A stretch of DNA of 64,000 nucleotides from Candidatus Saccharibacteria bacterium UBA3749 (GCA_002371235.1 DFGN01000002.1:4774-68773); one strand, 5' to 3'; positions 2,535-64,000 are shown, counted from the first letter of the stretch. Numbers and translations: made by a program. The notes: generated from the letters alone by a model not told the origin.

Positions 2535-3920
2535 ATGAAAGATTTAGTACTAAACCTAATAAAACAGGAACAAAAACGCCAAAGCGAAGGACTAGAGCTC
2601 ATCCCGAGCGAAAACTACGTCTCAAAAGCTGTTCTTGAGGCTATGGGCTCAGTTCTAACAAATAAATATTCCGAAGGATACCCAAGTTTCGAAGGCCTCA
2701 CGGATTGGAGCGAAGAAGAAATCTCCGAAAAAATTCTGCCAAACCATAGATATTATGGGGGACAAGCCAATGTCGATCGCATTGAGCGTCTTGCTATTGC
2801 ACGCGCCTGCAAATTATTCAATTCCGATCATGCCAACGTTCAGCCCCATTCTGGCGCCAATGCTAACGAGGCGGTTTATTTTGCCTGGTGCAACCCCGGC
2901 GACAATATTCTGGCCATGAATCTAGGCCACGGTGGCCATCTTACTCACGGCTCACCAGTTACTCGTAGTGCAAAGATCTATAACTTTATTCCATATGGAA
3001 CAGACGACAGAGGCGATCTTGACTACGATCAAATTGAATCGCTCGCATTATCTAACGACATTAATCTAATCCTAGTAGGATATTCCGCCTTTCCGCTAAT
3101 CCCAGATTTCAAGCGCGTAGCTGACATCCGAAAAAAAGCCGAAACCAAATGGGGCCACGAGATACTCCTAATGGCCGACATGGCCCATGTCGCCGGCCTC
3201 ATTGCTGCCGGCATTCATCCTAATCCTCTAGATTTCGGTTTTAACGTCATGACCACAACTACCCACAAGACACTTCGCGGCCCACGTGGTGGCCTAATTC
3301 TAACCAATGGTAAAGTCGGCAACCCCTTAAAAAAGATCGAGCACAAATCTCTTGAAAATATCCCGACTCTAGTCGATAAAGCCGTCTTCCCTGGGACCCA
3401 AGGTGGCCCACTCGAACATATTATTGCCGCCAAGGCGGTCGCTTTCGGCGAAGCCTTGAAACCTAGTTTCAAAATTTACGCCAAGAATATCGTAAAAAAC
3501 GCTAAGGCCCTGGCCGAAGAATTGAAGAAGCGCGGATTCGTTCTTCAAGCCGATGGCACAGAGAATCACCTCATTTTGATTGATGTTATGAAGAGCTATG
3601 GTATTAACGGCAAGATCTACGAGAAAGCCCTTGATTTAATCGGATTAACTTTAAATGCCAATGCCCTCCCAGGCGATACTGGTGGCGCCTTCCGTCCCAA
3701 TGGTGTCCGCCTTGGCACCCCAGCCATCACTACTCGCGGCCTCGGCGTTAAAGAAATGGCCAGAATCGCCGAATGGATGGAAGAAGTTGCCCTCCTCTGC
3801 CAGAAAGCCGAACAAGACGGCTTGTCCGACTCTGAATTCGCAAGTTTAACCGAAATCGCCAAACTCCGCCAAGAGGTCAAGACTCTCGCTCTCAGCTTCC
3901 CATTACCGATAAGCAAATAA
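2535..3920 (+). CDS. glyA: serine hydroxymethyltransferase
   Basis: LIPSEN, NVQPHSG, GGHLTHG, TTTHKTLRGPRGG, RLGTPA motifs. Confidence 0.97.
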   Translation: MKDLVLNLIKQEQKRQSEGLELIPSENYVSKAVLEAMGSVLTNKYSEGYPSFEGLTDWSEEEISEKILPNHRYYGGQANVDRIERLAIARACKLFNSDHANVQPHSGANANEAVYFAWCNPGDNILAMNLGHGGHLTHGSPVTRSAKIYNFIPYGTDDRGDLDYDQIESLALSNDINLILVGYSAFPLIPDFKRVADIRKKAETKWGHEILLMADMAHVAGLIAAGIHPNPLDFGFNVMTTTTHKTLRGPRGGLILTNGKVGNPLKKIEHKSLENIPTLVDKAVFPGTQGGPLEHIIAAKAVAFGEALKPSFKIYAKNIVKNAKALAEELKKRGFVLQADGTENHLILIDVMKSYGINGKIYEKALDLIGLTLNANALPGDTGGAFRPNGVRLGTPAITTRGLGVKEMARIAEWMEEVALLCQKAEQDGLSDSEFASLTEIAKLRQEVKTLALSFPLPISK

Positions 3921-3927
3921 AATCATT

Positions 3928-3978
3928 CTAAATCCAGCGAACAACAATAATCGCAACAACGGTATGTTAGTACGCCGC
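3928..3978 (+). other. DGR template-repeat-like 3' fragment (AAC/AAT-rich), inverted relative to the adjacent VR
   Basis: CTA AAT CCA GCG AAC AAC AAT AAT CGC AAC AAC GGT ATG TTA GTA CGC reads LNPANNNNRNNGMLVR, parallel to the VR end YPGTINYYKYNGRTVRC. Confidence 0.55.
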
Positions 3979-4007
3979 TCAATTAAGGGTACAGTTCAAA
4001 CAGTTCA

Positions 4008-5834
4008 CTAAATGCCAGGGGCGACGCAGCGCACTGTCCTCCCGTTGTACTTGTAGTAGTTGATTGTGCCTGGGTAGACGTTAGACGAAGACAGGCTCAA
4101 GTTGTAGGCGTAGTTGGACGAGACGGCCGTAGACGACCAATAGTAGCCGTACGAGCCACGACTGCCCACCGAACCACTGCTGACGCTGCCGGAATAGACG
4201 AAGTTATTAGGATAAGTTCTCATTTTATTAGAAGCATCCGTACCTTCTGGAGTACCCGTGTAATAGAAGTAATCATTAGCAAAGTTTGCTGGATCTACTC
4301 CTATAGTAGCACGCGATAGTTTCCAGAAGTCACTTACATCCACATTAGCCTTTCTACCACCTTTTGGTAGATGCCAACCAGCAGGACATAGGTCACCTGC
4401 TACACTATTATTGTTGGTACCAAAGCTATATGTGCCATTGCCAGCCGTAGCGGAGTACCAGTTGTAGTAGTTACCATAAGAGTACATTGCCACGCCATTT
4501 GCGGTTGGGCCTGATGCGCGGTTTGTAGTATTGCCCGTAAATAGCATTGATTGATCATCGCAGGAAGCAGCATTGGTAGTACACCATGCAGTCGTAGTGG
4601 GATCTTGTGAAGCGGAAAGAGTGTTATATGTTTCAGTATCTGAATAGTTGTGTTTGAGGGTGACGTTAGTGCCGTCGTTTAGTGGTTTGTTAGTATTGGC
4701 GATAGTAAGAGTAGCGGAGTTGTCTAAGCGAAGGTTTTCTATCATCCAACATTTACCGTCAGCGAGTTTAGCGACGGCATATGTTTCGTCATCACGCTGA
4801 TCAGTTAAAGCAGAGACAGAATCTAGGTTAGCAGTACCATCAGTAGGGGCTATTGTAAGGCTATTAGAACCATTACCGCAGAGAGTATTTACTACGGCAG
4901 AGTTTTGTAAGTAACCAACTGACTTAATCCAAACTGCATAGAGTGATAATCCATCAGCAGTTGTACCATTTGGTACTGTAATAGTTTCATTAGGACCATA
5001 GAACTTAGCATTAGGATTAATGTCATAGTCATAAACATCACTCCAACCAGCAAAGCCATAACCAGCTCTACTATAGTTAGAAGCAAGTAGTGTTACACTA
5101 GCTCCATCAGCAGAAGCGGTTTGCCTTCCCATTGTACCTTCAGTACCACTTAGGGCATTAACGTTATAGCAAATCTTACCACCTTCACAAGCTACTGGAC
5201 CTAATTGTGGTTCAGGATTAGCTACAGCAATGAAATTAATTACGTTCTTATATTCACCAGAAGCTTGAGTAGTAGATGCTCTTGCACCTATTTTAAATGT
5301 AATATAATCACTAGCTGCTGCAGCATCAGTATCAATTAGTGTAGTTACATTATCATTATCACTATATAATGGTAATCCAGAATAATTAGACCAAGTAGAG
5401 TTAGTTTCTGATGTTCTATAAGCATATCCCCATGTACTATCAGTAGCTATAGTAGCTTCACTAGCTCCAAAGTTAAGACTGGAGAATACTGGAGCGGTAA
5501 CACTATTACTGTTACCACTGCCGTTATTGTCAAGTACTAAATCTCTAGTTTCATAATCATCTTCTTGTCCTACTGTAGCATTTAGAGTATATCCATAGGC
5601 TGTATTAGTGGTTACTGTGACTGTTATTTCATTACTATCTGCCATACTACCAGGAGCAAGTTCTGGTATTACTAAATCAGCTGATGATAATGATATAGAT
5701 ATCATTGGATTGAAGGTAAAGCTAATATCTGCGTCTGACGAGAAAGTAAGGGCGGAGGTGGAGCCAGCGCTAATCAAACCAGACATTACGCCAAGCATTA
5801 AAGTTAATAATAAGAAATGTCGTAACTTATTCAT
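4008..5834 (-). CDS. secreted surface protein with C-terminal FISUMP (Fibrobacter succinogenes major paralogous, C-type-lectin-like) domain; probable DGR target
   Basis: signal peptide; DGKCWMIENLRL, GNYYNWYSATAG, LCPAGWHLP, GYYWSST...VRCV motifs; B-repeat-like GYGFAGW. Confidence 0.8.
   Translation of the reverse strand: MNKLRHFLLLTLMLGVMSGLISAGSTSALTFSSDADISFTFNPMISISLSSADLVIPELAPGSMADSNEITVTVTTNTAYGYTLNATVGQEDDYETRDLVLDNNGSGNSNSVTAPVFSSLNFGASEATIATDSTWGYAYRTSETNSTWSNYSGLPLYSDNDNVTTLIDTDAAAASDYITFKIGARASTTQASGEYKNVINFIAVANPEPQLGPVACEGGKICYNVNALSGTEGTMGRQTASADGASVTLLASNYSRAGYGFAGWSDVYDYDINPNAKFYGPNETITVPNGTTADGLSLYAVWIKSVGYLQNSAVVNTLCGNGSNSLTIAPTDGTANLDSVSALTDQRDDETYAVAKLADGKCWMIENLRLDNSATLTIANTNKPLNDGTNVTLKHNYSDTETYNTLSASQDPTTTAWCTTNAASCDDQSMLFTGNTTNRASGPTANGVAMYSYGNYYNWYSATAGNGTYSFGTNNNSVAGDLCPAGWHLPKGGRKANVDVSDFWKLSRATIGVDPANFANDYFYYTGTPEGTDASNKMRTYPNNFVYSGSVSSGSVGSRGSYGYYWSSTAVSSNYAYNLSLSSSNVYPGTINYYKYNGRTVRCVAPGI
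4011..4205 (-). other. DGR variable-repeat (VR)-like segment
   Basis: abrupt switch to C-ending codons (TAC, AAC, GTC, AGC, GCC) in the ligand-binding C-terminus, unlike the A/T-ending codons of the 4840-5700 gene body. Confidence 0.65.
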
Positions 5835-6178: not shown

Positions 6179-6207
6179 AAAAATAAGCCCCCGAGGGGCT
6201 TATTTTT
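6179..6207 (-). terminator. terminator after rpsI
   Basis: aaataagcccc-cga-ggggcttattt inverted repeat. Confidence 0.8.
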
Positions 6208-6601
6208 AACGCTTTGAGAACTGTTCCTTCTTGCGAGCAGAACGCAAGCCATACTTTTTGCGCTCTTTTTCTCTCGGATCGCGTGAAGTAAATCCAGCCT
6301 TCTTTAGTACCGGACGTAAATCTGGTGAATCTGTTACTAGGGCCTTCGATATAGCTAGTTTAATAGCGTCTATCTGTCCAGCAAGTCCACCACCTTTTAC
6401 GACAATAGTAATATCATACTCCTTCTGTTTACCAGCTAGTGCCAAAGGATCGGTAATTTCGGCAAGATAAGTCTTATTACCAGACAAATATTCAAGAGCC
6501 AACTTACCATTAATAGTAATCTCACCCTTACCGGCATACAAACGAGCGGTTGCCGTGGCAGATTTACGACGGCCAAGACCGTAAGTATATTTCTTTGCCA
6601 T
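6206..6601 (-). CDS. rpsI: 30S ribosomal protein S9
   Basis: GLGRRK, GGGLAGQ, ERKKYGLRSARKKEQFSKR. Confidence 0.98.
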   Translation of the reverse strand: MAKKYTYGLGRRKSATATARLYAGKGEITINGKLALEYLSGNKTYLAEITDPLALAGKQKEYDITIVVKGGGLAGQIDAIKLAISKALVTDSPDLRPVLKKAGFTSRDPREKERKKYGLRSARKKEQFSKR

Positions 6602-63325: not shown

Positions 63326-64000
63326 TTATGGCTGGGCGATGGTGAAGAATTTGCCGGATGGAGAATCTGCGTATTTAGATGTAGTTTGCCCATAAAGACG
63401 GCTAGTAGTATTGTTAATACTATTCCCGTTTGTTTGAGGGATGGTTACAGACCAGGTGGTGGCGGACTTGCCGGCGTTAGAGAACATGTAGTTCATATCT
63501 GTCACGTTAGAAGTATTCCAAGAAGAGAGATTCAAAGTAAAGCTGGTGGCTCTGTAGCCGGCATAATAAAACATGCTGCGCATATCTGTCACGTTAGAAG
63601 TATTCCAGGAAGAAAGATTCAAAGTAAAGGCGGTGGCGGAGTAGCCAGCACCGGAGAACATTCCGCTCATATTTGTCACGTTAGAAGTAGCCCAAGAAGA
63701 AAGGTCGCCGATGGACCAGGCGGTAGCGGAGTTGCCGGCGCTATAGAACATGTAACTCATATTTGTCACGTTGGAAGTATTCCAGGAAGAAAGGTCGCCG
63801 ATAGACCAGGTAGTGGCGTTGTAGCCGGCGCTATAGAACATGTCGCTCATATTTGTCACGTTGAAAGTATTCCAAGAAGAAAGATTCAAAGTAAAGGTGG
63901 TGGCGGAGCGGCCGGCGTTAGAGAACATTCTGCTCATATCTGTCACGTTGGAAGTATTCCAAGAAGAAAGATTCAAAGTAAAGGTGGTGGCGGAGTAGCC
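63326..64000 (-). CDS. DUF285/BspA-type surface repeat protein, 5' partial (runs off the window)
   Basis: LSSWNTSNVTDMSxMF repeats; frame open to position 64000. Confidence 0.85.
   Translation of the reverse strand, partial: GYSATTFTLNLSSWNTSNVTDMSRMFSNAGRSATTFTLNLSSWNTFNVTNMSDMFYSAGYNATTWSIGDLSSWNTSNVTNMSYMFYSAGNSATAWSIGDLSSWATSNVTNMSGMFSGAGYSATAFTLNLSSWNTSNVTDMRSMFYYAGYRATSFTLNLSSWNTSNVTDMNYMFSNAGKSATTWSVTIPQTNGNSINNTTSRLYGQTTSKYADSPSGKFFTIAQP
63440..64000 (-). repeat. 87/90-bp coding tandem repeats (6 full units plus a partial)
   Basis: 29-30-codon units; AACGTGACA invariant in all six. Confidence 0.95.

Follow-up and report, generated by a model that had tools for sequence, protein, structure and literature searches.

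A FISUMP-family gene of Candidatus Saccharibacteria ends in an orphan variable region, very probably written by a diversity-generating retroelement that the assembly lacks

The 64,000-nucleotide stretch of Candidatus Saccharibacteria bacterium UBA3749 analyzed here (GCA_002371235.1, DFGN01000002.1:4774-68773; hereafter the window) carries a FISUMP-family gene of 608 codons at 4008..5834 on the minus strand, recognized by its open reading frame (ORF), its translation and its TIGR02145 profile score. The last 65 codons of this gene (4011..4205, minus strand; NFVYSG...VRCVAPGI) have the character of the variable region (VR) of a diversity-generating retroelement (DGR). Three lines of evidence define the segment: a change point in the G + C content of third codon positions (GC3), a scaffold shared with the template repeats (TRs) of related genomes and a set of sibling VRs in other species. 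Given these data we consider it very probable that a DGR wrote the segment. The fuller account that we favor, and regard as reasonably probable, joins this origin to a present state: the VR would be a fossil, its cassette lost, its sequence frozen and a stub of a TR left beside the gene. The genome (G000 below) is a metagenome-assembled genome (MAG) of 31 contigs and 719,243 bp that is 97% complete, and the window belongs to its contig C11.

The original prediction was that the last ~65 codons, at 4011-4205, are dominated by codons ending in C, and the switch in codon usage proved to be real. GC3 is 0.78 in the last 65 codons versus 0.25 in the other 543 (51:14 versus 136:407, Fisher p = 4e-17), with third-position C at 0.57 in the segment versus 0.18 in the gene body and third-position A at 0.05 versus 0.28. 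The maximum-likelihood change point falls after codon 543, making window position 4205 the first base on the VR side, which is exactly the predicted boundary. The codon strings quoted in that prediction (AGC GTC AGC, TAC GGC TAC, TCC AAC TAC GCC TAC AAC and ATC AAC TAC TAC) are all present. Amino-acid composition was ruled out as the source of the NNC bias, since synonymous codon choice itself shifts at the segment: the ratio of C to T in two-fold NNY codons is 19:4 in the segment versus 54:110 in the body (p = 1e-5). Among the 2,794 non-overlapping 65-codon windows of the genome (mean GC3 0.405, standard deviation 0.094) the segment ranks third, and the three windows of highest GC3 are all FISUMP C-termini.

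A search of the genus recovered sibling VRs of 75-87% identity in 7-9 other species (among them G087, G181, G098, G201, G162, G090 and G317). When eight sibling VRs were aligned, the scaffold was found to be conserved, synonymous third positions included, and some codons varied at positions 1 and 2 with C kept at position 3. The 285 nt immediately upstream of the VR showed only 48-50% DNA identity in five sibling genes. A conserved VR over a diverged body is the reverse of ordinary evolution and, judged from the sequences, is what repeated overwriting by a conserved TR would be expected to produce. By setting the hypervariable positions of the VR to A we obtained an inferred TR, which served as the query for a second genus search. 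This search recovered two real TRs, G237:C2:45074-45256 (TR_G237) and G294:C62:3523-3705 (TR_G294), each having 18 AAC triplets and each adjoining an RT (reverse transcriptase) gene encoding 409-412 aa. Compared with its own VR, TR_G237 had 21 of its 51 adenines changed and none of its 141 other bases (Fisher p = 2e-14), and TR_G294 had 27 of 52 adenines and 3 of 140 other bases changed (p = 2e-15). Comparison of the same TRs with the VR of G000 also gave adenine-biased mismatches: 19/52 adenines and 11/140 other bases for TR_G294 (p = 5.5e-6), and 18/51 adenines and 13/141 other bases for TR_G237 (p = 7e-5). The non-adenine differences between this VR and the TRs are mostly third-position transitions. 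As 6-7 of these are common to the VR of G087, the G000 and G087 VRs appear to come from a sister TR variant; about three, all GC-to-AT, are private to G000. TR homology starts at TT(T/C)GTCTATTCC, coinciding with the GC3 change point. Moreover, over the 285 nt that precede the VR, the FISUMP domain of the target adjacent to the G237 cassette is 89.5% identical to that of the G000 gene. Authorship of the segment by a DGR, as originally proposed, is thus borne out by congener TR/RT cassettes that share its scaffold and show adenine-biased mismatches, and by sibling VRs that vary at codon positions 1 and 2.

Other TR/VR pairings were examined and rejected. The eight TRs of the first RT loci (L017-L024) were homologous only, with 59-78% identity and 38-60% of mismatches at A. 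The TR of G098 was ruled out as the cognate of the sibling VR of that genome (64% identity), and the second VR of G237 (L069) was ruled out as a cognate of TR_G237.

The VR is one of many such ends in this genome. About 24 FISUMP paralogues are present, making up roughly 6-7% of the 0.72-Mb genome (an estimate from ~24 genes of ~2 kb each), and in ~17 of these GC3 rises to 0.62-0.85 over the last 65 codons. The VR-like ends form sibling sets having an invariant scaffold, an example being PNNFLYSG.W.GSVA..RG..G.YWSRTA on contigs C2, C22 and C10. Within this trio 82-92% of the VR differences fall at codon positions 1 and 2, and only 3-8 of the 65 third positions are changed, whereas about 55% of the differences between the gene bodies fall at position 3 (56-67 of 300 third positions). 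Hence homing was later than the divergence of the paralogues. The trio scaffolds are no longer identical, unlike what would be expected under a working shared TR, and drift has begun. Paralogue locations include C22:7112-9011, C10:8695-10594, C2, C8, C23 and C29, and many contigs end inside FISUMP genes. A short VR-like fragment (..SNAYGLGLFSSSVYLGTNKG..) at C25:23295-23368 on the minus strand has no gene attached and is probably a truncated FISUMP pseudogene. GC3 values of 0.63-0.71 were also seen in 65-codon windows inside the genes of a second family, which consists of the C11 ORF that ends in ..SGKFFTIAQP (window about 63329-64000) and its paralogues on contigs C31 and C21.

A family of this size might be thought to generate such ends without a DGR, by gene conversion or cassette shuffling among the FISUMP paralogues, by diversifying selection or simply through amino-acid composition. 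Paralogues do exchange sequence, as strain variants of one VR-bearing paralogue (P0124 versus P0125) have mosaic N-terminal halves, with 44 substitutions that all lie within residues 2-339, upstream of the FISUMP domain. However, such processes do not account for the shift in synonymous codon choice, for mismatches to real TRs that are adenine-specific in pattern, for a scaffold conserved at synonymous sites across species whose gene bodies are ~50% identical, or for a segment boundary placed just where TR homology has its 5' limit. We therefore regard a non-DGR origin as highly improbable.

DGR cassettes were found to be widespread among the congeners. RTs were present in 17 of the 24 sampled genomes; their open frames span about 350-520 aa, most of them 375-410. 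At the eight RT loci that were fetched, an RT of 375-408 aa having the motif IGNLTSQ lies next to a TR and an accessory ORF of 290-400 aa; contigs that extend far enough also include a FISUMP target with a VR at its 3' end. Seven of the eight loci gave TR/VR pairs of 196-244 nt that were 87-91% identical and had nearly all of their mismatches at TR adenines (e.g., 18/19, 17/19, 20/21 and 28/30). The eighth locus (L019) gave an 82-nt TR match only, in which 6/6 mismatches were at A. Given these adenine-specific TR/VR pairs at the RT loci of the genus, the use of FISUMP C-termini as DGR targets is native to the genus. In loci L017, L020-L024, L049 and L083 the A-rich sense strand of the TR lies opposite to the RT gene (accessory gene, RT, then inverted TR). 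Targets can also be remote from the cassette: TR_G294, on contig C62, matches a VR on contig C28 of the same genome (L070:4047-4232), with 14/15 mismatches at TR adenines. The protein encoded by this remote G294 target is 73% identical to the protein described here over aa 202-606.

The cassette itself is missing from G000. The earlier observation that no RT lies in the 64-kb window extends to the whole 719-kb assembly, which lacks an RT, an accessory gene and a full TR. The RVT_1 profile had no match in the assembly, although the control genomes did match, and tblastn searches of the assembly with eight RTs of the genus gave nothing below E = 0.3. In an assembly that is 97% complete this is likely, although not proven, to be true absence. 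Likewise, tblastn with eight accessory proteins of the genus gave no full-length match in the assembly, one query having a 44-aa local match on C18 (E = 2e-7); these accessory proteins matched no Pfam or NCBIfam family. A cognate TR was absent when this VR and 16 other VR-like ends were used as blastn queries against all 31 contigs: every match of the 17 ends was to a paralogous VR, with 60-83% identity, and the mismatches involved all four bases. A strict VR scaffold pattern had 0 matches in metagenome_contigs and 0 in viral_contigs. A relaxed pattern added another sibling VR (L087) and gave 0 viral matches; nothing that it recovered was clearly a cognate TR, a single weak TR-like stretch having 63% identity.

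A remnant of a template was nevertheless found next to the gene. The spacer of 87 nt between the stop codon of glyA (3920) and that of the FISUMP gene (4008) contains a truncated and decayed TR stub of 48 nt, LNPANNNNRNNGMLVRR, at 3931..3978 on the plus strand and thus convergent with the VR gene. No other stretch of the genome is AAY-dense in the manner of a TR. The sequence of the stub is identical at 22/23 bases to the TR of G021:C9 (L024), and a genus search with the stub gave matches in many genomes. All eight matches checked by coordinates (G005:C30, G013:C63, G021:C3, G021:C9, G237:C2:6078, G130:C91, G201:C21 and G007:C3) fall on TRs that directly adjoin RT genes. The stub aligns with the 3' ends of these TRs (..NPANNNNRNNG[RN]SVRC..); the conserved Cys has become Arg and the 5' three quarters are gone. 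The convergent orientation fits the layout common in the genus (target, accessory gene, RT, inverted TR), from which such a stub would remain once the accessory and RT genes had been deleted.

The history that we propose can be divided into three steps: (i) the RT would have copied a TR transcript, misincorporating opposite adenines such that AAC became NNC, (ii) the resulting cDNA would have replaced the VR at the 3' end of the FISUMP gene by mutagenic retrohoming, and (iii) the accessory gene, RT and TR would then have disappeared from this genome, with the template lineage surviving in the congeners G237 and G294. A VR written from a TR would bear the C-ending, A-poor third positions of the TR rather than the A/T-ending codons of the gene. 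The VR would now be frozen, a fossil of past diversification that evolves by ordinary mutation.

Current activity was assessed by comparing three assemblies: the window contig (75.7 kb) and strain contigs of 243 kb and 240 kb from two other assemblies (ERZ28612953 and ERZ12302853), all with identical flanks. Over 15.8 kb, 8 and 4 bases distinguish these two assemblies from the window, and none of them are in the VR or its flanks. All 8 (or 4) differences lie at nt 306-981 of the FISUMP gene (window 4854-5529, minus strand), in its N-terminal half. Two of the variable amino-acid sites (N108S and A293T) are equivalent to the two at which the paralogue on C15 differs between its own strain variants (S107N and T298A), suggesting that the two genes underwent gene conversion or cross-talk during assembly. 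Strain variants of four other VR-bearing paralogues, P0124 and P0125 among them, also have identical VRs. Hence, at the consensus level the three assemblies show no present-day VR variability. In a repeated family and a fragmented MAG the 3' end might conceivably have been joined from another organism or paralogue, but the same gene and VR lie within contigs of 75.7, 243 and 240 kb. As the three assemblies agree, we reject an assembly chimera and give almost no credence to an artefact of this sort.

The main alternative, although we think it rather unlikely, is that the VR is a live remote target, the cassette being unbinned, unassembled or on a phage or plasmid from which it diversifies the FISUMP paralogues in trans. 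Several observations point in this direction, or otherwise weigh against a fossil. The MAG is fragmented, with contigs that end inside FISUMP genes, and the RT contigs of congeners are often only 2-6 kb, such that a cassette could have gone unbinned; most of the sampled genomes of the genus have an RT. Remote targeting is known in the genus from G294, and the sibling VRs of G000 vary at codon positions 1 and 2 over bodies that vary at position 3, indicating homing after the paralogues had diverged. GC3 remains high at 0.78 and the ORF is intact, and thus any loss was not ancient. The stub is of the R-N-N-G lineage, whereas the present VR is of the K-Y-N-G-R-T lineage, and hence the stub is not the template of this VR. 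Finally, the three assemblies are nearly clonal and possibly derive from the same strain or sample, which makes the identity of their VRs weak evidence of modest value. A live target is in turn difficult to reconcile with a 97%-complete assembly that has no RT, accessory gene or TR, with consensus VRs that are identical in three assemblies for five targets, with sibling VR scaffolds in the genome that are no longer identical and with pattern scans of viral_contigs and metagenome_contigs that yielded no TR of this scaffold.

The original prediction left the choice between diversification in trans and historical diversification. The historical alternative is favored by the adjacent TR stub, the VR identity in three assemblies and the drift of the scaffolds. 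That prediction had also counted the lack of a TR with A-only mismatches and of strain variation as evidence against it; the genome and strains have neither, which argues against ongoing diversification but has no bearing on a DGR origin. We infer a true loss of the cassette rather than an assembly gap, and a loss that, given the still high GC3, would not be ancient. Other RT-less genomes also have sibling VRs, among them G087 (99% complete, 10 contigs), G162 (7 contigs), G181 and G317. In G237 a cassette of the cognate type is flanked by pgk and by a gene encoding 519 aa; its target and TR are followed by the RT and accessory gene, which are encoded on the other strand. In G000 these two flanking genes are separated by an empty, clean spacer of about 80 bp in which no remnant is left and, hence, gain and loss cannot be distinguished there.

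The 3' end of the VR is a GC-rich invariant sequence, GGGAGGACAGTGCGCTGCGTCGCCCCTGGC (4014..4043, minus strand), at the position of the initiation of mutagenic homing (IMH) sequence; it is identical in TR_G294 and one base off in TR_G237. No hairpin or inverted repeat was found downstream of the VR (z = 0.33), nor was a terminator found there; an inverted repeat has been found in only 34% of DGRs (PMC5758913). Just past the FISUMP stop codon the motif TTTGAACTGTACCCTTAATT (3981..4000, minus strand) recurs in six FISUMP paralogues. The pattern GAAC[TC][GA]TNCCC has nine matches in the genome, six of which are located 5-20 nt past a FISUMP stop codon. This post-stop motif, of the general form TGAACTGT[AC]CCC(TTAA), is present at 3981-4000 and is also found on C2, C8 (two copies), C10 and C15 of G000, and one of the six FISUMP genes that have it lacks a VR-like end. 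The motif is probably 3' flank that was copied along during gene duplications.

The FISUMP gene is cargo inserted between two core genes. On one side is glyA, encoding serine hydroxymethyltransferase (2535..3920, plus strand), which was assigned from the Pfam annotation of the same locus in the strain contigs and from orthologues in congeners. On the other is rpsI, encoding ribosomal protein S9 (6206..6601, minus strand), assigned from the strain-contig annotation. In congeners the rpsI-glyA junction is a gap of 226 bp (G004) or contains unrelated genes (G017). In congener G006 (L083, G006:C3:1-5700) an accessory-RT-TR cassette lies directly upstream of thyA-folA-glyA, which is the same operon neighborhood as that of the orphan VR and the TR stub in G000.

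The 608-residue protein begins with a signal-peptide-like stretch, MNKLRHFLLLTLMLGVMSGLISAGSTSA, followed by an uncharacterized N-terminal domain and the C-terminal FISUMP domain; it has no lipobox. The family assignment of the original prediction holds, the TIGR02145 score of 54.1 bits being above the cut-off of 41.65, and the PF09603 score (33.4 bits) falls just under its cut-off of 33.9. Homologues numbered 2,375 in a word-indexed search and 4,841 among cluster representatives, and those with names are from Candidatus Saccharibacteria. The representative library also contains giant proteins (P0136, P0140, P0144 and others), 2,000-5,500 aa long, in which the FISUMP domain is matched in tandem up to 16-18 times. 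An AlphaFold2 model of aa 429-608, based on an alignment of 84 sequences, had a predicted local distance difference test (pLDDT) score of 86.8 and places the VR in the terminal beta-strands; an earlier model of 280 aa from 47 sequences was poor (pLDDT 52). Foldseek searches of the PDB with the aa 429-608 model gave no significant match (best E = 3.9), the only lectin being CEL-IV with a template modeling (TM) score of 0.21, and a PDB sequence search with the protein gave no match. Against BFVD, Foldseek found phage proteins annotated as 'Fibrobacter succinogenes major paralogous domain' (E = 4e-5, TM 0.49). The C-type-lectin (CLec) label for this protein, of target class CLec2, is from the literature (PMC5758913) and was not confirmed by the model searches.

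The prototype DGR is the Mtd/Brt system of Bordetella phage BPP-1, which is phage-borne, has a VR of the CLec1 type and includes a complete cassette as well as an IMH with a cruciform. The history proposed here would share with BPP-1 a mutagenic retrohoming that is specific to adenines and directed at the 3' end of a receptor-binding gene. DGRs acting on Fib_succ_major-type targets are already described. These targets form category 'd' (DUF1566 / DUF823 / Fib_succ_major), of VR class CLec2, an example being Legionella LdtA (Wu et al. 2018, PMC5758913). As in the Legionella pneumophila DGR/LdtA system, the protein is secreted or at the surface, has a Fib_succ_major-type domain and carries the VR at its C-terminus, the AAC/AAT codons of TRs are matched by NNC codons in the VR and the ...VRC... 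end is conserved. Unlike the Legionella system, the G000 genome has no RT, accessory gene or TR, either adjacent or distant, the host is a Saccharibacteria with a 0.72-Mb genome, and the protein lacks a lipobox and the VR a GC-rich inverted repeat past its end.

The Treponema denticola DGR acts on TvpA plus up to seven non-adjacent targets (Wu et al. 2018, PMC5758913). One TR there serves several paralogous targets, some of them distant, which is also seen in G294 and is implied for the sibling VR sets of G000. The T. denticola system differs in that its targets have CLec domains of the formylglycine-generating enzyme (FGE)-sulfatase type and its cassette is present, whereas the cassette is missing here. 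DGRs of the candidate phyla radiation (CPR) and DPANN are reported in Paul et al. 2017, as cited in PMC5758913, and as DGR clade 2 in Roux et al. 2021 (PMC8144416). For most CPR DGRs, Wu et al. (PMC5758913) report only one target and the order TR-(avd)-RT. The DGRs of this genus are likewise cellular DGRs in Patescibacteria, having an RT with the IGNLTSQ motif, but they differ from most CPR DGRs in their layout of accessory gene and RT followed by an inverted TR, in their FISUMP targets and in their many VR-like paralogues.

Catalogues of DGRs usually start from the RT and, hence, genomes without an RT are counted as DGR-free. In G000 most FISUMP paralogues have tips that appear to be DGR-written although the assembly contains no RT, and thus a surface-protein repertoire shaped by a DGR would outlive the element. 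Codon-usage change points together with the TRs of relatives can expose such fossil VRs, and the genus offers RT-bearing and RT-less species for comparison. A more speculative scenario, which we put forward only tentatively, is that cassettes in this genus turn over fast, inserting beside one target, writing it and remote paralogues, and then being deleted to leave VRs and stubs. If so, two cassettes would have served this locus in succession, one of the K-Y-N-G-R-T lineage that wrote the VR and one of the R-N-N-G lineage, the stub of which adjoins it. On this view the genome, of 0.72 Mb, would carry its ~17 frozen VRs as a standing library of binding tips that recombination among paralogues reshuffles. 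The VR protein may bind a ligand or host, and we nominate the FISUMP family as candidate host- or ligand-binding proteins of the Saccharibacteria, the genome being of the epibiont type.

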